From sequence record PQ356294.1: 64,000 nucleotides of DNA, one strand, 5' to 3'. Positions 11,347 through 64,000 of the stretch are shown piece after piece. Made by a program: the position numbers and the translations under genes. Source of the stretch: Escherichia phage Ec_YwIITB1. Each line of letters begins with the position of its first letter. The stretch's first letter is position 1. The notes under the pieces are model-generated. The model was not told where the DNA came from, did no database searches, and was given only the letters and a program-made list of their open reading frames with translations.

Positions 11347-12908
11347 ATGACTATCAAAACTAAAGCTGAACTTTTGAACAAATGGAAGCCATTACTGGAA
11401 GGTGAAGGTTTACCGGAAATTGCTAATAGCAAACAAGCGATTATCGCTAAAATCTTTGAAAACCAGGAAAAAGATTTCCAGACAGCTCCAGAGTACAAAG
11501 ACGAAAAAATCGCCCAGGCGTTCGGTTCTTTCTTAACAGAAGCTGAAATCGGTGGTGACCACGGTTACAACGCTACTAACATTGCTGCTGGTCAGACTTC
11601 TGGCGCAGTAACTCAGATTGGCCCAGCTGTTATGGGTATGGTACGTCGTGCTATTCCTAACCTGATTGCTTTCGATATTTGCGGTGTTCAGCCGATGAAT
11701 AGCCCGACTGGCCAGGTATTTGCACTGCGTGCAGTATATGGTAAAGACCCAATCGCTGCTGATGCTAAAGAAGCATTCCACCCAATGTATGGTCCAGATG
11801 CAATGTTCTCTGGTCAGGGTGCTGCTAAGAAATTCGCGCTAGCACACAAACTACTGTAAGTTGGAACCATTTACACCTATTTCTTCCAGGAAACTGGTAC
11901 TGTATATCTGCAAGCTACCTCTAGTTAAAGCAAATTGATACAAGTGCTTCTGACGCAGCTAAATTAGATGCTGAAATTAAGAAACAAATGGAAGCTGGCG
12001 TATTGGTAGAAATCGCTGAAGGTATGGCTACTTCTATCGCTGAACTTCAGGAAGGTTTCAACGGTTCTACCGATAACCCATGGAATGAAATGGGATTCCG
12101 TATCGATAAACAAGTTATCGAAGCTAAATCTCGTCAGCTGAAAGCTGCTTACTCTATCGAATTAGCACAAGACCTCCGCGCTGTTCACGGTATGGATGCT
12201 GATGCTGAACTGTCTGGTATTCTGGCTACCGAAATCATGCTGGAAATCAACCGTGAAGTTGTTGATTGGATTAACTACTCAGCTCAGGTTGGTAAATCTG
12301 GTATGACCCTGACTCCGGGTTCTAAAGCTGGTGTATTTGACTTCCAGGATCCGATTGATATTCGCGGTGCTCGCTGGGCAGGTGAATCCTTTAAAGCTCT
12401 GTTGTTCCAGATTGACAAAGAAGCAGTTGAAATTGCTCGTCAGACCGGTCGTGGTGAAGGTAACTTCATTATCGCTTCCCGTAACGTAGTTAACGTTCTG
12501 GCTTCAGTTGATACTGGCATTTCTTATGCTGCACAGGGTCTGGCTACCGGCTTTAACACTGATACTACCAAGTCAGTATTTGCTGGTGTTCTGGGTGGTA
12601 AATACCGTGTATACATCGACCAGTATGCTAAACAGGATTATTTCACTGTAGGTTATAAAGGTCCGAACGAAATGGATGCTGGTATTTACTACGCTCCATA
12701 TGTAGCTCTGACTCCGCTGCGTGGTTCCGATCCGAAGAACTTCCAACCGGTAATGGGATTCAAAACTCGTTACGGTATCGGTATCAACCCATTTGCAGAA
12801 TCCGCTGCTCAGGCTCCGGCTTCTCGCATCCAAAGCGGTATGCCTTCTATTCTTAATAGCCTTGGTAAAAACGCTTACTTCCGCCGTGTATATGTTAAAG
12901 GTATCTAA
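11347..12908 (+). CDS. 23: major capsid protein gp23; reading frame interrupted between ~11836 and ~11930
   Basis: 170-aa ORF 11347-11859 matches gp23 N-terminus, 306-aa ORF 11988-12908 matches C-terminus; in-frame stops at 11857 and 11926 with three frame changes between. Confidence 0.85.
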
Positions 12909-15894: not shown

Positions 15895-17324
15895 TTATGG
15901 ATAGGTATAGATGATACCAGTTTCTAAAGCAGTTTTATGAATGATGTATCCATTGCGTGATTCTTGAACATCAACTTCTGGATAGTCTTTCATCATCTTC
16001 TGAAGAGTGTAACGATGCAGGTAGTATTTACTGTCTGGATCTTCAGTTTTCCAATCTTTACCTTCTTCGGTCATTTTTTGGATTTCATCCATAACCCACC
16101 AGCCGCACCAGATATAAGCCGAAGTACGATGTGGAAGAGGATGAACATAAGGCAATTCACCTTCTGGTTCCGGAGCAACTTTATCAGTTACCTGAACTTG
16201 GCCTGTTGCTTTAACTGTTTTACTATCATAGTCGGTTGCTGTAACGACAGCAGTAACTTCAATAGTTTGACTTCCAATAGATGAGGTGTCAACGGTGTAT
16301 ACATTAGTTGACCCTTCTACAGGAGAAGAATCTTTCTTCCATGAATAAGTAATTTGAGCTGCTTCAGGTGCTCCGTGACATTAGCCGTAAATGTAGCCGA
16401 AGCATCTTGCTGAACGTTAATAGAAGGAGGAGTCAATGTAACCTGTGGATTCATTGTCTTCTTATTAACTGTCAATGATACTTCATTAGAAGTAACTTCC
16501 TTTGCATCATAATTTTCAGCCGTTACTTGGGCTACACACTTAACTGTTTTAGCTCCAACTGTGGTAGGAGTATAGTTAAATGTAGTAGTAGTTTCTCCAT
16601 CGACCAGAGAACCGTCAACATACCACTGATACGTAGCAGACGCTCCTGGTGGCTGTGAAGCCAAGGTAGCAGTAAATTGAACTGGGGTTCCAATAACTCC
16701 TGCTGGAGGATTAGCAGGAGTTACGGCTAACGTAGTTGTCTGTGTTTTCTTATTAACAGTCAGTGACACTTCATTAGAAGTAACTTCCTTTGCATCATAA
16801 TCTGTCGCGGTTACTTGAGCTACACACTTAATTGTTTTAACTCCGCTTGCGTCAGGAGTGTAATTGAATGTAGTGCCAGTTGCTTCGCCCACAGGAGAAC
16901 CGTCAACGTGCCATTGATACGTAGCGTTTGCACTTGGTGGCTGTGAAGCTAAGGCAGCGGTAAATTCAATTGGAGTTCCAATCACTCCAGCATCAGGGCT
17001 ACCAGGAGTTACAGCTAAAATAGTTGTTTGTGTCTTATTTTGAACCGTGATAGTTGTCGTAGTTTCTGCTGTTTCAGGTTCAGGTTCAGATTCAGATTCT
17101 GGAACTGTATTTGTTGCAACGACTTTAATAGTCTTTTGACCTGCAGGTCCTTTTAATACATAGCCAAAAGTTGCCGCTTCTCCATCTTGCGGAACATTAT
17201 CTACACTCCAAGCATAGGTAATAGTTCCATCTCCAGTTTCACCACTGGGTGTAGCAGTAAACTGCTTGGTTTCATCAATAACTCCTGTTGGGGTTTTAGG
17301 AGTTATATCAACTGTAAAAGTCAT
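15895..17324 (-). CDS. hoc: Hoc outer capsid protein with extra tandem Ig-like domain; frameshifted near 16371-16375
   Basis: 335-aa ORF 16317-17324 (starts MTFTVDITPKT) plus 86-aa ORF 15895-16155 matching the Hoc C-terminus (ends GIIYTYP); alternate frame between them reads the expected Hoc sequence. Confidence 0.85.
16464..17039 (-). repeat. tandem in-frame duplication (~288 bp unit) encoding two Ig-like domains within hoc
   Basis: Two consecutive ~96-aa blocks (ILAVTPGSPDAGVIGTPIEFTA... and TLAVTPANPPAGVIGTPVQFTA...) with matching DNA repeat; boundaries approximate. Confidence 0.7.
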
Positions 17325-28554: not shown

Positions 28555-30611
28555 TACATCTTGAACTTTTTAGACATTCCGTTGATGTTAACCAAAGAAG
28601 CCAAGATTTGAGAAACTTCGTTTTCCTCTTCTTTTGATTCTTCTACAAGGAATTGATTAAACCCAGCCATTGGACGAACTTCACCAGTTTCCATTAGATG
28701 ATCGCCATCATATACCGATTCTTCTAATTGTTCAGAAGGAGGAACGATTGTGCCTTCAATTAGATACTTGTTATAAGCAGTTTCTTTCATCATGTACGTG
28801 CTCACTTTATTAATCTTCAGCAAAATTCCACGTGGTAGAATAACTTCAGCTTCTGATGGAAATCCTGATAAATGACCTGGAACGATAACTTTGATTCGCT
28901 CAGCCCCTTTAATTACCATACCTACGCTAGCTTCAGCATCTTCATTAGCATATGCAGAATGACTACCCATATGCATTAAATCTTCAGCATCAACAGAACC
29001 TTCTCCTTCACCAGAAAATACTGCGCCGGAATCATCTAGAGCCATATAGTTTTTACCATGCTCACCGAAGATATTTGGTTTAAGCGATGTTGATACGAAG
29101 TTCTTGAAATAGAACATTTTATTTTCAATATTATGGCGTAAAGTTTTAAAAGTAACTTCTTGTCCACGATAAAGCGTAATTCCCGGAGGAAGAACTGAAC
29201 CTTTGGCAAAGGCAGAATCCAGCGTCTCGATGTGTTTAATAGCTCGTTCCATATATTCTTCACGGGTAGAATCTGGTTTACCCAAGAGGAACGAGTTCAT
29301 TTCAACATATGAATCTGCACAATAATCTTCAATTACAACAGACTCAGCCTGAGTTAATCCTTTTGGAGTTACTTCAGTGCTTGCGTATTCATATGCCTGA
29401 GCAGCAGATTCATTAATCAATTTATAAATGCCATTCATGACAAATTGAATAATAGCTACCTTTTCGTCTGGCGTAGCTTTAGAACCTTTAACTAAATCAT
29501 TGATAATTTTCTTAATAACATCAAAGCTATTAGAAATATTAATGTCAGCGAGATCGCTCAAAATTTTATCGGTTTTATAATCAAAAAATTCTTTATTCTT
29601 TAAATATTCTTGAGAACCTTGATATGTTATATCGCTCTGCAGTCTGATAGACGGATCGCGTAAACGTGCATGGGCCAATGCAATATGATTTCGGAGGCTT
29701 TCTAGTTCATAATCGTTAGATTTAAAACGAGAAGCACTTCTCATACCACCGATAGCTCCTTTGCTGAAGTTGGAACCAATCTGAATAACGCCAGAGTTCA
29801 TTGGTCCTTCTGCTTTATATACCGGAACTTTAGATTCAAACTCTTGATATTTCTTGGCGGCGAAGCTATCGCCCTGAAGTGAAGCATCGACAGTAGAATA
29901 TTGAGCTTGCGCTGCCAATCGACGACTAATTTTAGTTTTCTGAATAACAGCTTGATCCGTGCGCTTATCATTTTCTAAAGCAATAGAAGCAGCAACAGCA
30001 ACAGCTTTAGGAACAGCATTACCTGTTTTAACATCTACATAAACATCACCAACCTTTGATTCAACTTTTGTGAATAACTCAGTTGAAATAGGAGGTACAC
30101 CTGGAATGTCTTCTAAATTGGCATTTTTACGGTAAACCATAATATATGCATACTTTTTATCATAATCCCAGATTTCCTTTAAAAGAACATATCGACCTGC
30201 TCCTTTAGTACGTACTAAACGGTCAGCAATAACTTGCATCTGACGAGCTGCGCCATTTGTTTTACTTTTTAGTACGCGGAATAGGCATGCATCAATTTTA
30301 TACTGTTTCATTGTTTGAAGAGCAGTATCAAAAACCGCATTAATGACACCAATTGGATTTCCACCCAAGTTTTTAAGTTTAACTAATGATAGTTTCTCAT
30401 TAACACCTATCATTACGATATGCATCATTTTATCGCCTGGCTTAACGTTTTTATTTGTATCACCGCCAGAGGTGTATGTACAAAATCTAAATCCAGGAAG
30501 CACACTTTCTTCGCCGGCTTGAATAGCAAAAATTTGAGGTATTTTATGCTTAGGATTTAAGTTAACAACCGGCGCCGAAGCGCCGTCAAATAATTCTGTA
30601 ATAAGTTCCAT
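28554..30611 (-). CDS. Alt-like ADP-ribosyltransferase, second paralog
   Basis: 685-aa ORF; N-terminal ~230 aa closely similar to the adjacent Alt; ART-like motifs YRGQ, FVSTSL, EAEVILPRG. Confidence 0.8.
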   Translation of the reverse strand: MELITELFDGASAPVVNLNPKHKIPQIFAIQAGEESVLPGFRFCTYTSGGDTNKNVKPGDKMMHIVMIGVNEKLSLVKLKNLGGNPIGVINAVFDTALQTMKQYKIDACLFRVLKSKTNGAARQMQVIADRLVRTKGAGRYVLLKEIWDYDKKYAYIMVYRKNANLEDIPGVPPISTELFTKVESKVGDVYVDVKTGNAVPKAVAVAASIALENDKRTDQAVIQKTKISRRLAAQAQYSTVDASLQGDSFAAKKYQEFESKVPVYKAEGPMNSGVIQIGSNFSKGAIGGMRSASRFKSNDYELESLRNHIALAHARLRDPSIRLQSDITYQGSQEYLKNKEFFDYKTDKILSDLADINISNSFDVIKKIINDLVKGSKATPDEKVAIIQFVMNGIYKLINESAAQAYEYASTEVTPKGLTQAESVVIEDYCADSYVEMNSFLLGKPDSTREEYMERAIKHIETLDSAFAKGSVLPPGITLYRGQEVTFKTLRHNIENKMFYFKNFVSTSLKPNIFGEHGKNYMALDDSGAVFSGEGEGSVDAEDLMHMGSHSAYANEDAEASVGMVIKGAERIKVIVPGHLSGFPSEAEVILPRGILLKINKVSTYMMKETAYNKYLIEGTIVPPSEQLEESVYDGDHLMETGEVRPMAGFNQFLVEESKEEENEVSQILASLVNINGMSKKFKM

Positions 30612-30614
30612 GAT

Positions 30615-32669
30615 TTATCCTTGAACGAACTTGTAAGGCATGTTTGTAATATCTATGCAAGACGCAATAATTCCAAGAGATGATTCTACTTTTTGTTTAA
30701 CATTTGATGAAACAAATGATGCAAAGTCAACTCTGTCTTCTATTTCAATATCATCTGTCATTGCAACTACTTCACCAGTTTCCATTAGACGATCACCGTC
30801 ATAAATTACTGATTCGGTGAGTTCTTCGGTAGTCATAACTTCAGCTTGAATAAGCTTGTTGTTAGTTTTAGCTGTTCCATCATTGTAAGATGCGTCGGTT
30901 ATTTTATTGACTTTGACCATCAATCCACGCGGCAAAATGACTTCCATTTCATTTGAAGGCGCTAAACTTCCACCTGGTAAAACAACGTTGACTTTATCAG
31001 CCCCAGTAATAACCCATCCAATTCCAACTAAATTATCGCTAGAATTAACAAGTCCTTCATCGTTTTTATCGATAGAAATGTTTAGACGCTTTTCGTCTGG
31101 TAAAACACCCACAGCTGAATCAGTCATCCAAGTACCAAAAATGTTTGGATATAATGATGTTGATACAAAATTTCTAAAATAAAAAACTCGATTTTTTACC
31201 AATGCTTCATATATTGAAGGAGCAGTCATGCTTTGAGCACGATAAACTGTAATGCCTTCTGGTATACGGTCACCATTTTCAAAGGCTGAATCTAAATTAT
31301 TTATCGCAGATTCAATTTCTTTTTCACTCATTACCTCATATCGTTCTGGATTATATAATCCCAAAAGAGCATTATTCATGTCTACATATCCTGAACCTAC
31401 GTATTCACGAATTCCGCGTTTTTGTGCCGGTGTGTATTTAGATGAATCTTTATTTTCGACTATAGAATGCAATGACCATCCAACGGTAAGAGCATATCCA
31501 CGTAATTCTCTTCGAATAATCTTTGTTTTTATTGCATTCCAAGAATTTTGCACTAACTCATTCGCAGCATCTTGATTTAAATGCGAATGCTTGTTAATAT
31601 TTCTTTCTAACCAAGCACCTTTATATTTTTCTAAAGTATCATCAACTATAGAAGCAATAGTTTCTAAAGTTTTTATTGAAGTAATAGATTCTTTTCGTAA
31701 TCTTTCTAAAGCTTTATTTTTTATTTCTGCATTAACATCAGATTCTTTATCTTCAGGAATTATAGAAGCTTCTCTGAATGCCATTCCAGCTGTAACACTA
31801 TTAAGAGCATTCTCTAATGCAAATCCTGAAGTAGAAATAACAGTTAATTCGTTAGCATCAGAAATTAAAGGCGCGTCAGCGGGTTTATTTAATTCTGCTG
31901 CTGAAGCCTCAAATTTTTGAAACATTGGTGTTTCAAATCTAGAAGATTCTAATGATTGACTTTGTGCAATTGCTCTACGGGAAATTTTAACTTTAACGAT
32001 TACAGCTTGGTCAGAACGTTTATCGTTTTCTTGCGCAATAGATGCAGCAATGGCCTCATTTTTAGTTACTTGAGCTCCGGTATCTTTATTGATATAAACA
32101 TCGCCGACTTTCGATTCAACTTTAGTAAAGAGCTCTGTACTAATTTCAGGAACTCCTGGAATGTCTTCTAATGATACATTTTTGCGATGTATAAGAATAT
32201 ATGCATACTTTTTATCGTAATCCCAGAGTTCCTTAAGAAGGACGTATCTGCCACCTGAACGACTACGGATAAGTCTATCAGCAATAAGTTGAATTTGACG
32301 AGCTTGACCAGCAGTTTTAGACTTAAGAATACGGAGCATGCAGGCATCAATTTTATACTGACGCATCGTTTGCATTGCAACAGTAAAAACTGAATTGATA
32401 TAATTAATTGGGCTTGGACCGAGACCTTTTAATTTAGCGATTGAACCTTTAGCAGTTAATGTAAAAGGAACAATATGCATCATTTTATCGCCCATCTTTA
32501 AATCGCGATTAGTATCACCTCCAGATGTGTAGGTACATAAACGAAAACCTGGTTGTTCAATTGCGTCATCAACATGAACTGAAAAAATTTGCGGTATTTT
32601 CTTCTTTGGATTTAAGTTTGTAATCGGAAGAGTAGTATCTTCGTCAAATAATTCTGTAATGAGTTCCAT
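30615..32669 (-). CDS. alt: Alt ADP-ribosyltransferase (virion-packaged)
   Basis: ORF open from 32672 (MMELITE); second ATG 32669 better spaced from GAGGA; motifs YRAQ, FVSTSL, EMEVILPRG; late promoter upstream. Confidence 0.85.
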   Translation of the reverse strand: MELITELFDEDTTLPITNLNPKKKIPQIFSVHVDDAIEQPGFRLCTYTSGGDTNRDLKMGDKMMHIVPFTLTAKGSIAKLKGLGPSPINYINSVFTVAMQTMRQYKIDACMLRILKSKTAGQARQIQLIADRLIRSRSGGRYVLLKELWDYDKKYAYILIHRKNVSLEDIPGVPEISTELFTKVESKVGDVYINKDTGAQVTKNEAIAASIAQENDKRSDQAVIVKVKISRRAIAQSQSLESSRFETPMFQKFEASAAELNKPADAPLISDANELTVISTSGFALENALNSVTAGMAFREASIIPEDKESDVNAEIKNKALERLRKESITSIKTLETIASIVDDTLEKYKGAWLERNINKHSHLNQDAANELVQNSWNAIKTKIIRRELRGYALTVGWSLHSIVENKDSSKYTPAQKRGIREYVGSGYVDMNNALLGLYNPERYEVMSEKEIESAINNLDSAFENGDRIPEGITVYRAQSMTAPSIYEALVKNRVFYFRNFVSTSLYPNIFGTWMTDSAVGVLPDEKRLNISIDKNDEGLVNSSDNLVGIGWVITGADKVNVVLPGGSLAPSNEMEVILPRGLMVKVNKITDASYNDGTAKTNNKLIQAEVMTTEELTESVIYDGDRLMETGEVVAMTDDIEIEDRVDFASFVSSNVKQKVESSLGIIASCIDITNMPYKFVQG

Positions 32670-37567: not shown

Positions 37568-37878
37568 TGCCTGCTAAAGCCCTCAAGGGGGACATAGGTT
37601 TTTGAATATTTAACGACCAGGATAACCATAAACCCGTCAACATACCTTATAGCTCTTATCTGTTGCACACCGTTAGCTTAAAGGTTCCGGGTTCGATTTC
37701 TCGAGGATAAGATATATACTGATGGATATATAGGCCTTGAGGCGTACTCCCGATTAGCCATCACCTCGGGGTAGCATGCACTTGCCGCTATAAAATAACA
37801 TTCAAGAGGTACACCGTAAAACAAAGTTCGACGGCTCCTCGATTTTAGCTCACACTAAGGCAGTGAATCTCCAATAAA
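37568..37878. other. ORF-free, relatively GC-rich structured region; candidate non-coding RNA or regulatory element
   Basis: Stops in all six frames; 8-bp long-range complement CCTCAAGG (37581-37588) / CCTTGAGG (37735-37742); several local palindromes. Confidence 0.3.
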
Positions 37879-38127: not shown

Positions 38128-38253
38128 TTAAAAATTCTCGTTAGAGATTAAAACTCGGTAGTCACGTTCTTCTGAATTTCATCTTCTTTCGACAGATCTC
38201 TCAGTTGTAGACTACCACATAGAATTGAAACCCAATTCATATTATTATTTATA

Positions 38254-45861: not shown

Positions 45862-47036
45862 TTAAAAATATTTTTTAAAACTCATCATAACTTTATCATC
45901 AACATCATTATCAATCTGTGCTACAAGATAAGATGACAGTTCTACTTCTTGCGGCGCGGATTGAACATTATCAGAATTAAGATATTCACGAATCCAAGGA
46001 TACGGGTGTTTAACCGGAGCATCGGTAATTGGGCATGGAAGACCACACTGTTTCATACGAGATACAGTTAAGTAATCAATAAAGTTCCACATGCTATTTG
46101 TATTTAATCCAGGAACATCGCCATCTTTAAATAAATGAACTGCCCAGTCTTTTTCTTGGCGGTTAACTTCCATGAAAATATCAACTGCTTCTTGTTCACA
46201 CTCTTGGGCGATTTTAACCCATTCATCACCATCAGTGCCAAGTTGAAGTTGACGAATAATATATTGGGTGCCTTTAAGGTGAAGCTGTTCATCACGTGCA
46301 ATGAACTTCATAATCTTGGCATTACCTTCCATGATTTCCATGTTTTTATGGAAGTTAAAGGTACATGCGAAAGATACGTAAAAACGAATAGCTTCCAGTG
46401 CGTTGATTACATGCAGACAAAGGTAAAGAGAACGCATTAGTTCACGTTTCCAATACATTTCATGCTCTATGGCATCTTTAATATCATCTTCGTCTGCGTT
46501 AATTTCTTTTTGGTACTCAATATCAGCTTTAGCATTCTGCCACGAGTTTTCTCAATAACATCATCATAGTAACGACCAATAGATTCAGCACGTTTCATGA
46601 TAGCTTTATCTAATACAATCTCATCAAATACTTTTGACGGATCAGTATAAAGATTCCGCATGATATGAGTGTATGAACGACTGTGAATAGTTTCGCTAAA
46701 AGTCCATGTAGCAACCCATGTATCAAGGCTTGGGTCTGAAATTAACGACATAAGTACAGCAGACGGTGCACGACCCTGAATGCTATCCAAAAGTGATTGA
46801 TACTTCAGGTTATTAGTAAAAATATCTTGCTGATACTGAGGAAGCTTGTTAAATTGTGCAGCATCCATCATCAAGTTTACTTCTTCAGGACGCCAGAAAA
46901 ATGACAACTGCTTTTCGGTTAAATCTTCAAAAACTTTATGGCGTTGAATATCATAACGCGCAATACCAAGACCTGAACCGAAGAACATAGGTTCTTTTAA
47001 AACATCAACTGGATTTGTATTAAAAACTGTGCTCAT
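45862..47036 (-). CDS. nrdB: ribonucleotide reductase small subunit NrdB, intron-less; frameshifted near 46539-46546
   Basis: 189-aa ORF 46467-47036 (N-terminus) and 198-aa ORF 45862-46458 (C-terminus) in different frames, 8 nt apart; alternate frame reads through the junction. Confidence 0.85.
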
Positions 47037-50770: not shown

Positions 50771-51795
<1,025 letters not shown>

Positions 51796-56185: not shown

Positions 56186-59100
56186 ATGGCCGAGATTAAA
56201 AGAAAGTTCAGAGCAGAAGATGGTCTGGACGCAGGTGGCGATAAAATAATCAACGTAGCTTTAGCTGATCGTACCGTAGGAACTGACGGTGTTAACGTTG
56301 ATTACTTAATTCAAGAAAACACAGTTCAACAATACGATCCAACTCGTGGATATTTAAAAGATTTTGTAATCATTTATAATAATCGTTTTTGGGCAGCAAC
56401 GGATAATATTCCAAAACCAGCGGGAAGTTTTAATAGAATTCGTTGGAAAGCATTACGTACTGATGCAAACTGGACAACTGTTTCGTCAGGACCTTATCAA
56501 TTAAAGTCAGGTGAATCAATTTCAGTTAATACTGCAGCAGGAAATGATATCACATTTACTTTGCCAACTTCTCCAATTGATGGAGATACTATCGTTCTTC
56601 AAGATATTGGTGGAAAACCTGGAGTTAACCAAGTTTTAATTGTAGCTCCAGTGCAAAGTATTGTAAACTTTAGAGGCGAACAAGTACGTTCAGTACTAAT
56701 GACTCATCCAAAGTCACAGATAGTTTTCATTTTTAATAATCGTTTGTGGCAAATGTATGTTGCTGATTATAGCAGAGAAGCTGTAGTTGTGACTCCAGCA
56801 AGTTTCTATCAAGCGCAATCAAACGATTTTATCGTGCGTAGATTTACTTCCGCAGCGCCGATTAATATTAAACTTCCGAGATTTGCTAATCATGGCGATA
56901 TTATTAATTTCGTTGATTTAGATAAATTAAATCCACTTTATCATACAATTGTCACGACATATGATGAAACAACTTCAGTACAAGAAGTTGGAACTCATTC
57001 CATTGAAGGCCGTACATCGATTGACGGTTTCTTGATGTTTGATGATAGTGAAAAATTATGGAGATTGTTTGACGGGGATAGTAAAGCACGTTTACGCATT
57101 ATAACGACTAATTCAAACATTCGTCCAAATGAAGAAGTTATGGTATTTGGTGCGAATAACGGAACAACTCAAACGATTGAGCTTCAGCTTCCAACTAATA
57201 TTTCTGTTGGTGATACTGTTAAAATTTCCATGAATTACATGAGAAAAGGACAAACAGTTAAAATCAAAGCTGCCGGTGAAGATAAAATTGCTTCTTCAGT
57301 TCAATTGCTGCAATTCCCAAAACGCTCAGAATATCCACCTGAAGCTGAATGGGTGACTGTTCAAGAATTAGTTTTTAACGGTGAAACTAATTATGTTCCA
57401 GTTTTACAGCTTGCTTATATTGAAGATTCTGACGGAAAATACTGGGTTGTACAGCAAAACGTTCCAACTGTTGAAAGAGTCGATTCTTTAAATAATTCTA
57501 CTAGAGCAAGATTAGGCGTAATTGCTTTAGCTACACAAGCCCAAGCTAACGTTGATTTAGAAAATTCTCCACAAAAAGAATTAGCAATTACTCCAGAAAC
57601 ATTAGCTAACCGTACTGCTACAGAAACTCGTAGAGGTATCGCAAGAATAGCAACTACTGCTCAAGTAAATCAGAACACTACATTCTCTTTTGCTGATGAC
57701 CTTATCATCACTCCTAAAAAGCTGAATGAAAGAACTGCTACAGAAACTCGCAGAGGTGTCGCTGAAATTGCTACGCAGCAGGAAACTAATACAGGTACTG
57801 ATGATACTACAATCATCACTCCTAAAAAGCTTCAAGCTCGTCAAGGTTCTGAAACATTATCGGGTATTGTAACTTTTGTATCTACCGCAGGAGCTACTCC
57901 AGCCTCTAGTCGTGAATTAAATGGTACAAATGTTTATAATAAAAATACTAATAATTTAGTTGTTTCGCCTAAAGCACTGGATCAGTATAAAGCTACTCCA
58001 ACGCAACAAGGTGCAGTAATTTTAGCAGTTGAAAGTGAAGTAATTGCTGGACAAAGCCAAGAAGGATGGGCAAATGCGGTTGTAACACCAGAAACGTTAC
58101 ATAAAAAGACATCAACTGATGGAAGAATTGGTTTAATTGAAATTGCTACGCAAAGCGAAGTTAATACAGGAACTGATTATACTCGCGCAGTCACTCCTAA
58201 AACTTTAAATGACCGTAGAGCAACTGAAAGTTTAAGTGGTATATCTGAAATTGCTACACAAGTTGAATTCGACGCAGGCGTCGACGATACTCGTATCTCT
58301 ACACCATTAAAAATTAAAACTAGATTTAATAGTACTGATCGTACTTCTGTTGTTGCTCTATCTGGATTAGTTGAATCAGGAACTCTCTGGGACCATTATA
58401 CCCTTAATATTCTTGAAGCAAATGAGACACAACGTGGTACACTTCGTGTAGCTACACAAGTTGAAGCTGCTGCAGGAAAATTAGATAATGTTTTAATAAC
58501 TCCTAAAAAGCTTTTAGGTACTAAATCTACCGAATCGCAAGAAGGTGTTATTAAAGTTGCAACTCAGTCTGAAACCGTGACTGGAACGTCAGCAAATACT
58601 GCTGTATCTCCAAAAAATTTAAAATGGATTGTGCAGAGTGAACCTACTTGGGCAGCCACTCCAGCCATAAGAGGATTTGTTAAAACTTCATCCGGTTCAA
58701 TTACATTCGTTGGTAATGATACAGCTGGTTCTACGCAGGACTTAGAGCTATACGAGAAAAATAGTTATGCAGTATCACCATATGAATTAAACCGTGTATT
58801 AGCAAATTATTTGCCGTTAAAAGCAAAAGCTGCTGACGCAAATTTATTAGATGGTCTAGATTCATCTCAGTTCATTCGTAGGGATATTGCCCAGACAGTT
58901 AATGGTTCACTAACCTTAACCAAACAAACGAACCTGAGTGCCCCTCTTGTATCATCTAGTACTGCTACGTTTGGTGGATCAGTTTCAGCAAATAGTACAC
59001 TAACTATTTCTAATACTGGAACGGCAACTCAATTAATTTTTGAGAAAGGACCTCAAACTGGAACAAACCCGACTCAAACAATGACTGTAAAAGTGTGGGG

Positions 59101-60055
59101 AAATCAATTTAGCGGAGAGTCAGACACAACACGTTCTACTGTATTTGAAGTTAGTGATGAAACTTCTAGTCATTTTTATTCTCAGCGTAATAAAGCTGGT
59201 AATATAACATTTAATATCAACGGTACAGTAACACCGATAAATGTGAATGCTTCAGGAACATTGAATGCGAATGGCGTTGCAACATTTGGTAATTCAGTCA
59301 CTGCAACTGGTGAAATTATTTCTCGAAGCGCAAATGCTTTCCGTGCTATTAATGGAAATTACGGTTTCATTATTCGTAATGACGGGTCAGTAACGAATTT
59401 TATGCTTACTGCATCAGGCAATCAAACTGGTGGATTTAATGGATTGCGTCCATTGTCCATTAATAATCAATCTGGGCAGGTCACAATTGGTGAAAGCTTG
59501 ATCATTGCTAAAGGTGCTACTATAAATTCAGGGGGTTTAACTGTTAACTCGAGAATTCGTTCTCAAGGTGTTAAAACATCTGATTTATATACCCGTGCGC
59601 CGACATCTGATACTGTAGGATTCTGGTCAATCGATATTAATGATTCAGCCACTTATAACCAGTTCCCGGGTTATTTTAAAATGGTTGAAAAAACTAATGA
59701 AGTTACTGGACTTCCATACTTAGAACGTGGCGAAGAAGTTAAATCTCCTGGTACATTGACTCAGTTTGGTAACACACTTGATTCACTTTACCAAGATTGG
59801 ATTACTTATCCAACGACTCCAGAAGCACGTACCACTCGCTGGACACGTACATGGCAAAAAACTAAAAACTCTTGGTCAAGTTTTGTTCAGGTATTTGATG
59901 GAGGTAACCCTCCTCAACCTTCGGATATAGGAGCAATTCCATCTGATAATGGAATAATAGGTAATCTTACTATTCGTGATTTCTTACGAATTGGTAATGT
60001 TCGCATTATTCCTGACCCAGTGAATAAAACTGTTAAATTTGAATGGGTTGAATAA
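56186..60055 (+). CDS. 34: long tail fibre proximal subunit gp34
   Basis: 1289-aa ORF; T4 homolog; late promoter upstream. Confidence 0.95.
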   Translation: MAEIKRKFRAEDGLDAGGDKIINVALADRTVGTDGVNVDYLIQENTVQQYDPTRGYLKDFVIIYNNRFWAATDNIPKPAGSFNRIRWKALRTDANWTTVSSGPYQLKSGESISVNTAAGNDITFTLPTSPIDGDTIVLQDIGGKPGVNQVLIVAPVQSIVNFRGEQVRSVLMTHPKSQIVFIFNNRLWQMYVADYSREAVVVTPASFYQAQSNDFIVRRFTSAAPINIKLPRFANHGDIINFVDLDKLNPLYHTIVTTYDETTSVQEVGTHSIEGRTSIDGFLMFDDSEKLWRLFDGDSKARLRIITTNSNIRPNEEVMVFGANNGTTQTIELQLPTNISVGDTVKISMNYMRKGQTVKIKAAGEDKIASSVQLLQFPKRSEYPPEAEWVTVQELVFNGETNYVPVLQLAYIEDSDGKYWVVQQNVPTVERVDSLNNSTRARLGVIALATQAQANVDLENSPQKELAITPETLANRTATETRRGIARIATTAQVNQNTTFSFADDLIITPKKLNERTATETRRGVAEIATQQETNTGTDDTTIITPKKLQARQGSETLSGIVTFVSTAGATPASSRELNGTNVYNKNTNNLVVSPKALDQYKATPTQQGAVILAVESEVIAGQSQEGWANAVVTPETLHKKTSTDGRIGLIEIATQSEVNTGTDYTRAVTPKTLNDRRATESLSGISEIATQVEFDAGVDDTRISTPLKIKTRFNSTDRTSVVALSGLVESGTLWDHYTLNILEANETQRGTLRVATQVEAAAGKLDNVLITPKKLLGTKSTESQEGVIKVATQSETVTGTSANTAVSPKNLKWIVQSEPTWAATPAIRGFVKTSSGSITFVGNDTAGSTQDLELYEKNSYAVSPYELNRVLANYLPLKAKAADANLLDGLDSSQFIRRDIAQTVNGSLTLTKQTNLSAPLVSSSTATFGGSVSANSTLTISNTGTATQLIFEKGPQTGTNPTQTMTVKVWGNQFSGESDTTRSTVFEVSDETSSHFYSQRNKAGNITFNINGTVTPINVNASGTLNANGVATFGNSVTATGEIISRSANAFRAINGNYGFIIRNDGSVTNFMLTASGNQTGGFNGLRPLSINNQSGQVTIGESLIIAKGATINSGGLTVNSRIRSQGVKTSDLYTRAPTSDTVGFWSIDINDSATYNQFPGYFKMVEKTNEVTGLPYLERGEEVKSPGTLTQFGNTLDSLYQDWITYPTTPEARTTRWTRTWQKTKNSWSSFVQVFDGGNPPQPSDIGAIPSDNGIIGNLTIRDFLRIGNVRIIPDPVNKTVKFEWVE

Positions 60056-60063
60056 GAGGTATT

Positions 60064-61179
60064 ATGGAAAAATTTATGGCAGAGTTTGGACAAGGATATG
60101 TCCAAACGCCATTTTTATCGGAAAGCAATTCAGTAAGATATAAAATAAGCATAGCGGGCTCTTGCCCGCTTTCTACTGCAGGGCCATATGTTAAATTTCA
60201 GGATAATCCCGTTGGAAATCAAACATTTAGTGCAGGTCTTCATTTAAGAGTTTTTAACCCTTCTACCGGAGCATTAGTTGATAGTAAGTCATATGCTTTT
60301 TCTGCTTCAAACAATACAACATCTGCCGCTTTTGTCAGTTTTATGAATTCTTTGACGAATAACAGACTTGTTGCTATATTAACTAACGGAAAGGTTAATT
60401 TTCCTCCTGAAGTGGTATCTTGGTTAAGGGGCGCAGGAACTTCAGTTTTTCCATCAGATTCAGTATTGTCAAGATTCGACGTATCATATGCTGCTTTTTA
60501 CACTTCTTCTAAAAGAGCTATTGCATTAGAGCATGTTAAACTGAGCAACAGAAAAAGCACAGATGACTATCAAACTATTTTAGATGTGGTGTTTGATAGT
60601 TTAGAAGACGTCGGAGCTACGGGATTTCCTAAAAGAACATACGAAAGTGTCGAGCAATTTATGTCAGCGGTTGGTGGAACTAACAACGAAATTGCGCGAC
60701 TGCCAACTTCAGCTGCTATAAGTAAATTATCTGACTATAATTTAATCCCTGGTGATGTTCTTTATCTTAAAGCACAGTTATATGCTGATGCTGATTTACT
60801 TGATCTTGGAACTACAAATATATCTATCCGTTTTTATAATGCATCAAATGGATATATTTCTTCGACACAGGCTGAGTTTACCGGGCAAGCTGGGTCTTGG
60901 GAATTAAAGGAAGATTATGTAGTTGTTCCTGAAAACGCTGTCGGATTTACTATATATGCGCAGAGAACTGCTCAAGCTGGTCAAGGCGGAATGAGGAATT
61001 TAAGCTTTTCTGAAGTGTCAAGAAATGGAGGTATTTCGAAACCCGCCGAATTTGGCGTCAACGGCATTCGCGTTAATTATATCTGTGAATCGGCTTCACC
61101 TCCAGATATAATGGTACTTCCTACGCAAGCCTCTTCTAAAACTGGCAAAGTGTTTGGGCAAGAATTTAGAGAAGTATAA
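60064..61179 (+). CDS. 35: long tail fibre hinge protein gp35
   Basis: 371-aa ORF; T4 homolog. Confidence 0.9.
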   Translation: MEKFMAEFGQGYVQTPFLSESNSVRYKISIAGSCPLSTAGPYVKFQDNPVGNQTFSAGLHLRVFNPSTGALVDSKSYAFSASNNTTSAAFVSFMNSLTNNRLVAILTNGKVNFPPEVVSWLRGAGTSVFPSDSVLSRFDVSYAAFYTSSKRAIALEHVKLSNRKSTDDYQTILDVVFDSLEDVGATGFPKRTYESVEQFMSAVGGTNNEIARLPTSAAISKLSDYNLIPGDVLYLKAQLYADADLLDLGTTNISIRFYNASNGYISSTQAEFTGQAGSWELKEDYVVVPENAVGFTIYAQRTAQAGQGGMRNLSFSEVSRNGGISKPAEFGVNGIRVNYICESASPPDIMVLPTQASSKTGKVFGQEFREV

Positions 61180-61241: not shown

Positions 61242-61913
61242 ATGGCTGATTTAAAAGTAGGTTCAACTGTGGGTGGATCTGTCATTTGGCATCAAGGAAA
61301 TTTTCCATTGAATTCAGCCGGTGACGATGTACTCTACAAATCATTTAAAATATATTCAGAATATAATAAACCGCAGGCAGTTGATAACGATTTCGTTTCT
61401 AAAGCTAATGGCGGTACGTATTTAAATAAAGTAATTTTTAATAAAGGAATGACTGTTCCCGGTGCAGGGTCAGCTGTAAACAATACAAACCAGTGCGGTA
61501 TTTATCCAGGTAATGGCGATGCAGCTACTTTTGCTACAGCAAATATTGATATTGTTTCATGGTATGGTATTGGTTTTAAATCATCACAGGGTTCAGCAGG
61601 TAGAACTGTAGTAATTAACACGCGAAATGGAGATATTAGCTCAAAGGGTGTAATTGAAGCATCACAAATACGCGCAACTTCATTATCTCCAGTAAATAAT
61701 TATGACCTTACACGGAAAGATTATGTCGATGGAGCAATAAATATTGTTACAGCAAACGCAAACTCTAGAGTTTTGCGTAAAGGTGACACCATGACAGGTA
61801 ACTTAACAGCACCAAACTTTTTCTCGCAGAATCCTGCGTCTCAACCCTCACACGTTCCGCGATTTGACCAAATCGTGATTAAGGATTCTGTTCAAGATTT
61901 CGGCTATTATTAA
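61242..61913 (+). CDS. 36: long tail fibre distal connector gp36
   Basis: 223-aa ORF; late promoter and terminator upstream. Confidence 0.9.
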   Translation: MADLKVGSTVGGSVIWHQGNFPLNSAGDDVLYKSFKIYSEYNKPQAVDNDFVSKANGGTYLNKVIFNKGMTVPGAGSAVNNTNQCGIYPGNGDAATFATANIDIVSWYGIGFKSSQGSAGRTVVINTRNGDISSKGVIEASQIRATSLSPVNNYDLTRKDYVDGAINIVTANANSRVLRKGDTMTGNLTAPNFFSQNPASQPSHVPRFDQIVIKDSVQDFGYY

Positions 61914-61921
61914 GAGGACTT

Positions 61922-64000
61922 ATGGCTACTTTAAAACAAATACAATTTAAAAGAAGCAAAATTGCAGGTCAGCACGTCCTGCTGCTTCAGTATTAGCCGA
62001 AGGTGAATTGGGTATTAATTTAAAAGACCGTGTACTTTTTACTAAAGATGACCAAGGAAATATTATTGATCTGGGTTTTGCTAAAGGCGGTAGCATTGAC
62101 GGGAATGTTATTCATATAGGAAACTATAATCAAACTGGTGATTATACTTTAAATGGCACCTTCACTCAGACAGGTAATTTTAATTTAATCGGTATTGCTC
62201 GAGTAACTCGCGATATTATTGCCGCCGGGCAGATTATGACCGAAGGCGGAGAACTTATTACAAAAAGTTCAGGTACATCACATGTTCGTTTTTTCGATAG
62301 CAATAGCCGCGAACGCGGAATCATTTATTCACCGGCTAATGATGGATTAACTACACAAGTACTTAATATCAGGGTTCAAGACTACGCCGCTGGTAGCGAA
62401 AGCACCTATGCATTTTCAGGCAATGGCTTATTTACTTCACCTGAAGTATCAGCATGGAAATCTATGTCAACTCCTCAGATTTTGACCAACAAAGTCATTA
62501 CTAATAATAAATCTACAGGTGATTATGACATTTATTCGATGGCAGATAATGTTCCACTGTCTGAAAGCACTACTGCTATTAATCATCTCCGTGTCATGCG
62601 TAATGCAGTCGGTTCTGGCATTTTCCATGAAGTTAAAGATAATGATGGAATAACTTGGTACAGCGGAGATGGGCTAGACGCTTATCTTTGGTCATTTACA
62701 TGGAGCGGCGGAATTAAATCGAGTCACTCAATTTCTATCGGTTTAACACCTGGCAATAAAGATTATTCAATACTAGGACCATCTAGTATTGCTTTAGGGG
62801 ATAATGATACTGGATTTAAATGGCACCAGGATGGATATTATTTCAGCGTCAATAATGGAACGAAAACATTTTTATTTAGTCCTAGCGAAACAACTAGCCT
62901 AAGAAAATTTGTAGCTGGATATTCTACTAACGGAACCGATTTAACTACTCCTCCTACTGAAAACTATGCTCTCGCTACTGTTGTTACATATCATGATAAT
63001 AACGCGTTTGGAGATGGTCAGACTCTTTTGGGATATTATCAAGGCGGTAATTATCATCATTATTTCCGCGGTAAGGGTACTACAAACATTAATACTCACG
63101 GCGGTTTGTTAGTTACTCCAGGTAATATTGATGTTATTGGCGGTTCTGTTAATATAGATGGTAGAAATAATTCTTCTACACTAATGTTTAGAGGTAACAC
63201 AACTGGTAGTAGTTCAGTTGATAATATGACAATTTCCGTATGGGGTAACACGTTTACTAATCCTAGTGTAGGTAATCGTAAAAATGTCATGGAAATTTCT
63301 GACGCAACTAGTTGGATGAGCTATATTCAAAGACTTACTACCGGTGAAGTAGAAATGAACGTTAACGGTTCATTTGAATCATCTGGTGTTACTGCTGGAA
63401 ATAGAGGAGTTCACACAACAGGTGAAATTTCATCTGGGGCCGTGAATGCGCTTCGCATTTGGAACGCAGATTATGGTGCCATTTTCCGTCGTTCAGAAAA
63501 CAGTCTTCATATTATTCCAACTGCCTATGGTGAAGGCAAAAATGGCGATATCGGTCCACTTCGTCCGTTTAGTATGTCTTTAGATACAGGTAAGGTTGTT
63601 ATTCCTGACCTAGATTTGAGTCATACAACTTTTGCTGAAAATGGTTTTATTAAATTCGGTGGGCATGGTGCTGGTGCCGGTGGTTATGATATTCAATACG
63701 TCCAAGCAGCTCCTGTTTTCCAAGAAATTGATGATGACGCGGTAAGTAAATATTATCCTATTGTTAAGCAGAAATTCTTACAAGGAAAAGCTGTTTGGTC
63801 TTTAGGCACTGAAATTAATTCCGGGACTTTTGTTTTACATCATTTAAAAGAAGATGGTTCACAAGGCCATACATCAAGATTTAATGCTGACGGTACAGTT
63901 AATTTCCCTGATAATGTTCAGGTTGGCGGTGGTGAAGCTACTATTGCTCGAAATGGTAATATCTGGTCTGATATTTGGAAATCGTTTACTTCAGCAGGAG
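61922..64000 (+). CDS. 37: long tail fibre distal subunit gp37, N-terminal ~690 codons (3' end outside window); frameshifted near 61967-61980
   Basis: ATG 61922 reads MATLKQIQFKRSKIAG then stops at 61994; frame -1 continues ARPAASVLAEGELGINLKD... open to window end. Confidence 0.85.

Follow-up and report, generated by a model that had tools for sequence, protein, structure and literature searches.

Cassette exchange at the distal-fibre locus of T-even phages is well documented (PMC3157838), and tail-fibre and adhesin modules of these phages are exchanged by recombination between conserved motifs, according to Tetart et al. (1998) in the part of PMC3157838 that cites that work. In the design of T2 and T6, unlike that of T4, gp37 is cleaved and gp38 caps gp37 as the adhesin (PMC3157838). 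The window analyzed here, the whole stretch of 64,000 nucleotides from Escherichia phage Ec_YwIITB1 (PQ356294.1), is a segment of a Tequatrovirus (T4-like) genome. Its nearest records are the Shigella phages pSs-1 (NC_025829, YP_009111063) and sb3 (PQ666541), at ~96% identity over 25 kb, and both carry g34, g35, g36 and g37 in the same order as the window. Upstream of gene 37, the window holds the following genes:

56186-60055, plus strand: gp34, an open reading frame that matches pSs-1 gp34.
60064-61179, plus strand: gp35, an open reading frame that matches pSs-1 gp35.
61242-61913, plus strand: gene 36, the hinge or distal connector, intact at 223 aa, with a match to PF03903 (Phage_T4_gp36) at E = 4e-33.

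Over g35 and g36, the lineage of the window differs from that of pSs-1 and sb3, with at most about 94% identity. The best full-length match to the g35/g36 block in our phage collection is 93.7% identical, and a search of that collection for a parent of the block found none above this value. Gene 36 shows ~60 differences from sb3 and pSs-1, together with a 15-nt in-frame insertion relative to both. This insertion lies at 61481-61495 and is followed by a divergent middle segment at 61496-61560, the protein having 223 aa against 218 aa in pSs-1. No full-length match to the divergent segment in the phage collection exceeds 82% identity. A 32-mer specific to this gene 36 allele was absent from IMG/VR, and exact-protein look-ups of gp34, gp35 and gp36 found none on record.

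Gene 37 starts at ATG 61922, with the Shine-Dalgarno-like AAGAGGA ahead of it, both read directly from the sequence. Its coding sequence is divided between two frames:

61922-61996, plus strand: truncated start of gene 37, made up of 16 authentic codons (MATLKQIQFKRSKIAG), 8 out-of-frame codons and TAG.
61951-64000, plus strand: gene 37 body, read in the -1 frame, corresponding approximately to residues 10-692 of the 1102 residues of pSs-1 gp37 and open to the window end.
61967-61977, plus strand: lesion site GGTCAGCACGT, with 2 bases more than every relative checked.

Codons 1-16 end with GGT at 61967-61969; the frame then reads QHVLLLQY and reaches TAG at 61994-61996, so that the ORF has 24 codons. 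The -1 frame (the phase of 61921) has a TAA at 61948-61950 and is open for 683 codons from 61951 to 64000, the end of the window. Its opening stretch is ..SARPAASVLAEGELGINLKDRVLF.. and it reads ..SARPAASVLAEGELGINLKDRVLFTKDDQGNIIDLGFAKGG.. within gene 37. By tblastn, residues 10-692 of pSs-1 gp37 match 61951-63999 at 98.98% protein identity and, because of this identity, the frame cannot be open by chance. The gene 37 body also carries the Pfam domain PF21446 (Gp34_trimer-like). The initial annotation had stated that the frame of gene 37 is lost 16 codons in, at TAG 61994, and that a gp37-like -1 frame carries on to the window end; direct reading of both frames bears out the former, and the tblastn match to pSs-1 the latter.

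The broken gene is gene 37, which encodes the distal subunit of the long tail fibre. It lies on the same strand as g34, g35 and g36 and directly 3' of them. The conserved gp37 N-terminus, MATLKQIQFKRSK.AG.(R/L)PAASVLAEGEL, is present but split, with residues 1-16 in frame 0 and the remainder in frame -1, and the N-terminus of the truncated start agrees with that of 22 related loci. The shaft is recognizable both from its amino acid identity to pSs-1 residues 10-692 (98.98%) and from 99.7% nucleotide identity to sb3. The single uninterrupted frame expected of gp37 is missing: TAG follows after 24 codons, and 2 additional nucleotides lie within 61967-61977.

Alignment of the window with three relatives, sb3, pSs-1 and ECp13, shows that the window has two additional bases. 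Their placement is ambiguous, as the surplus can be set at TC 61969-70, CA 61970-71 or GC 61972-73. Removal of CA or of GC from the lesion yields an exact catalogued allele, while removal of TC yields the pSs-1 form except for a synonymous GCT/GCC. Because a natural allele, or one close to it, is recovered whichever of the three pairs is taken out, we read the lesion as a surplus of two bases. The allele set against which this was judged consists of 22 loci drawn from GenBank, IMG/VR and metagenomes, and in these codons 16-18 read GGT CAA CGT (Gln17), GGT CAA CTT or GGT/GGA GCA CGT (Ala17). The window reads GGT-CA-GC-ACGT, which is the gapped union of the alleles GGT CAA CGT and GGT GCA CGT. 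Tandem duplication or slippage was considered as an origin of the 2 nt and rejected, as neither TC, nor CA, nor GC repeats the bases next to it.

The mechanism offered by the initial annotation was different, namely one missing T (GGTTCAGCA to GGTCAGCA) near 61967-61972. Under this proposal, an ancestral GGT TCA GCA CGT, which has an extra Ser after Gly16, would have lost one T by mutation or sequencing error. Arithmetically, this is the smallest repair, a single base, and it restores an open frame. However, it yields G-S-A-R, and the extra Ser codon is found in none of the 22 loci and in none of the best matches listed. In a blastn search with 61900-62040, the best 30 of 781 matching records spanned 139 nt per 141 query nt, each being 2 nt shorter than the window. 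Likewise, when the N-terminus repaired by the added T (79 residues) was used in tblastn, 78 codons, not 79, were used in all 40 of the best matches listed. We also ran a variable-gap pattern, which allows 4 to 12 nt (N{4,12}) between GCAGG and CCTGC, on contigs from IMG/VR, metagenomes and GTDB. All 18 contigs recovered from IMG/VR (5) and metagenomes (13) have a spacer of 7 nt; a spacer of 9 nt was never seen, nor was one of 10 nt, the length that loss of a single T requires. The same scan of GTDB genome contigs gave canonical spacers only, or no match, and a search of E. coli genomes for an assembly sharing the lesion returned no match. With two bases fewer in every relative examined, and an extra codon in none of them, loss of a single T is very unlikely to explain the break.

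The lesion falls within a short zone in which the window changes its relationship to pSs-1 and sb3:

61962-62019, plus strand: transition (mosaic) zone of 58 nt, defined by the list of differences and the allele comparison.
62020-64000, plus strand: block of perfect identity, 1981 nt, 100% identical to pSs-1; identity to sb3 is 100% from 62013, over 1988 nt.

Across the 2079 nt of gene 37 that the window covers, every difference from sb3 (4 mismatches and a 2-nt gap) and from pSs-1 (6 mismatches and the gap) is confined to 61962-62019. Three features of this zone are unlike both phages: the +2 surplus, ATT where they have ACC, and the G of position 62012, the last of which occurs in 0 of the 22 related loci. 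The G at 61976 differs from sb3 only, and positions 61983, 62016 and 62019 differ from pSs-1 only. Downstream, the 1981-nt block is the longest perfect run against pSs-1 in the window, against 608 nt for the second longest and 25 nt on average. As far as these comparisons place it, the frame break sits exactly at a switch of lineage, from the divergent g35/g36 to a g37 identical to that of pSs-1 and sb3. The segment 62020-64000 has the appearance of a fibre cassette exchanged not long ago or, alternatively, of a chimeric join. The two phages that share the identical g37 block come from Korea (pSs-1) and India (sb3), and because the block occurs in both it is naturally mobile. The mosaic itself may well be natural.

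To score frame changes elsewhere, we used translations of the 82 complete pSs-1 CDSs of the region as queries against the window. Apart from gene 37, frame changes that are not seen in the relatives checked affect four genes:

11347-12908, plus strand: gp23 (major capsid protein); lesion at 11838-11931, with three frame changes and two in-frame stops in ~90 nt of a variable loop.
~15898-17324, minus strand: hoc; lesion at 16372, one base fewer than in pSs-1, which splits the gene into two frames.
45865-47036, minus strand: nrdB; lesion at 46543, where 4 bases (ATAT in pSs-1) are missing, with a frameshift at ~codon 166.
50976-51550, minus strand: frd (dihydrofolate reductase); lesion at 51183-51260, within ~80 nt of strong divergence, net -7 nt relative to pSs-1.

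Relatives are longer at these sites. At the gp23 lesion, which amounts to net -4 nt, the best matches span 240 nt per 236, and the ten best listed matches span 222 nt per 221 at hoc and 225 nt per 221 at nrdB. The breaks in nrdB, frd and gp23 lie clearly at or inside abrupt shifts in similarity to pSs-1, that in nrdB exactly where identity to pSs-1 turns from perfect to divergent, whereas the contrast is weaker at hoc. The gp23 segment 11838-11931 is pieced together from alleles like those of pSs-1 and of PYps32T, and this lesion has the same chimeric look as that of gene 37. In T4 morphogenesis, gp23 is indispensable for T4-type capsids. Because a T4-like phage with such a gp23 could not form capsids, and a genome carrying it could not propagate as a phage, the gp23 lesion at least must be technical. 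Laboratory growth does not require hoc, nrdB or frd, and breaks in these three genes are by themselves no proof of error. The initial annotation treated the gene 37 break as an isolated frameshift with a meaning for host range. The break itself stands, but its isolation does not: four more genes, gp23 among them, are broken, which points to the quality of the record and not to biology.

Other departures in the window are of a different kind. Two tandem Alt-like ADP-ribosyltransferase paralogues, at 28557-30611 and 30618-32669 on the minus strand, share ~41% mutual identity and are arranged as in pSs-1; in this region, 31221-31345 holds a cluster of small compensating indels that sum to net 0. 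Between the homologues of pSs-1 gp219 and gp222, the window lacks 44 nt at 37823 and 21 nt at 38228 that are present in pSs-1, both deletions apparently intergenic.

How, then, did gene 37 come to be broken in this record? The +2 lesion, its absence in every relative examined, its form as a union of alleles, its position at the junction and the presence of other broken genes are established. We consider it likely that the break is an artefact of sequencing, assembly or consensus calling at the mosaic junction and not biology, a technical cause that we infer from the absence of the lesion from independent relatives and from the loss of frame in other conserved or essential genes of this record (gp23, hoc, nrdB and frd). 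The Gln and Ala alleles would have been aligned with offsetting gaps and both inserted pieces retained, giving GGT-CA-GC-ACGT. A mixed population could have produced such a union, as could a poor contig join or a reference-guided consensus in which an insertion was applied without its paired deletion, and the true gene would be an ordinary intact gene 37 of the T2/T6 type with Gln or Ala as its 17th codon. Against an artefact, homopolymer errors are the commonest technical indels and the surplus is not one of them; besides, real lesions could be present in a sequence recovered from a genome that is defective or makes up a minority of a mixed sample. Indeed, the two bases could be a real insertion that leaves gene 37 null in a defective, minority, or uncultured or mixed-sample genome, and they might have arisen through imprecise recombination or mismatch repair where the pSs-1-type g37 cassette was acquired. 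The location of the lesion at the mosaic junction, the documented exchange of T-even distal-fibre cassettes (PMC3157838), the natural mobility of a g37 block found in both pSs-1 (Korea) and sb3 (India), and a surplus atypical of homopolymer sequencing error are all in keeping with a real insertion. However, homologous recombination makes precise junctions, and the lesion is in none of the best 30 listed of 781 matching records. A real insertion would moreover need genuine triple-shift lesions in the essential gp23, which is hard for any replicating lineage to sustain, and we regard it as rather unlikely. Were it real, the virions would carry no distal half-fibres and could infect only if a co-infecting helper complemented them. 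With a real frameshift, the phage would be unable to adsorb and its genome unusable for host-range inference. The record needs a read-level check before the tail-fibre, capsid, nrdB, frd and hoc genes are called pseudogenes or used comparatively or for host range.

Both of these accounts take gene 37 as written to be non-functional. It would instead be functional if translation were rescued, either by a programmed -1 frameshift within 61951-61993 (giving MATLKQIQFKRSKIAG-S-ARPAAS...) or by re-initiation at a downstream codon:

62008-62010, plus strand: TTG, the first start-type codon in the -1 frame, whose product would miss 28 to 29 conserved N-terminal residues.

A -1 frameshift is formally possible, as the two frames overlap by 43 nt, but there is no X_XXY_YYZ among the frame-0 heptamers of 61951-61993. 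Only one canonical heptamer occurs, U_UUA_AAA at 61930-61936, and it cannot rescue gene 37 because the -1 frame closes downstream of it, at the stop of 61948-50. This heptamer occupies codons 3-5 of gene 37 in frame 0 and is conserved in all relatives within MATLKQ. Nor is a stimulatory structure apparent, the predicted fold of 61940-62060 having -22.8 kcal/mol, at z = -0.44 versus shuffles, and the two-frame arrangement occurs in 0 of 22 loci and in 0 of the 30 best listed matches. Transcriptional slippage was also considered and ruled out, as the gene 37 site contains no homopolymer run that would permit it. For re-initiation, there is an AAGGTG ahead of TTG 62008, but at just 2 nt from the TTG its spacing is poor for a Shine-Dalgarno sequence, and the residues lost (1-29) are those of gp37 that are best conserved among the loci compared. 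The 28 to 29 N-terminal residues would be the end of gp37 that joins gp36, and a gp37 started at TTG 62008 would presumably be non-functional. Rescue of gene 37 by either route is highly improbable. A further variant takes the +2 to be genuine and the phage viable, with synthesis of gp37 depending on unconventional recoding (-1 or +2) or on a restart at TTG 62008, where a pSs-1-type cassette was recently joined. This variant is scarcely credible; the distal fibre of such a phage would be translationally throttled or altered at its N-terminus.

What kind of fibre would gene 37 specify? The gp37 of pSs-1 (1102 aa) has a C-terminal Peptidase_S74 intramolecular chaperone domain by Pfam. Next after gp37, pSs-1 encodes a 259-aa protein that Pfam assigns to PF05268/PF21721, 'tail fibre adhesin Gp38'. 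Because the 1981 nt of g37 that the two phages share are identical, the phage of the window very probably shares the T2/T6 design, a judgement carried over from the relatives to the region beyond the window end. The main adhesin would thus probably be gp38, encoded outside the window, and not the C-terminus of gp37, with host range set mainly via gp38. The initial annotation placed the adhesin in a variable gp37 C-terminus, which is partly wrong: relatives that are 99% identical end in Peptidase_S74 and have a separate gp38.

Among described systems, pSs-1 and sb3 come closest to this locus. Their gp37 has the same N-terminal motif and the same Shine-Dalgarno sequence as the window. Their genes are intact (1102 aa), whereas the window carries two additional bases after codon 16, and Ile14 and Gly30 of the window stand in place of their Thr14 and Ala30. 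In T4, gp37 has the same role as here, forming the shaft of the distal half-fibre, and its N-terminal attachment region, MATLKQIQFKRSKIAG.RPAASVLAEGEL, is conserved with that of the window. The two differ at the tip: T4 uses the C-terminal domain of gp37 itself as the adhesin and has gp38 only as a chaperone, whereas the nearest relatives of the window have Peptidase_S74 and a separate 259-aa gp38 of the PF05268 family. Programmed -1 sites, such as those of dnaX and of the phage tail chaperone G/GT, resemble this locus in that two overlapping frames encode one protein; unlike them, gene 37 has no slippery heptamer, stimulatory structure or conservation of the arrangement. The exchange of tail-fibre and adhesin cassettes among T-even phages is also like what we see here, in that divergent sequence gives way sharply to 100% identity at a point inside the conserved 5' end of g37. 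Unlike natural exchanges, which keep the reading frame, the junction here has the +2 surplus and two other changes within 50 nt. The biological point that survives is modest: a 2-kb block of g37 that is 100% shared with two Shigella phages is joined to a divergent g35/g36, a combination that fits the cassette exchange known from the distal tail-fibre locus.
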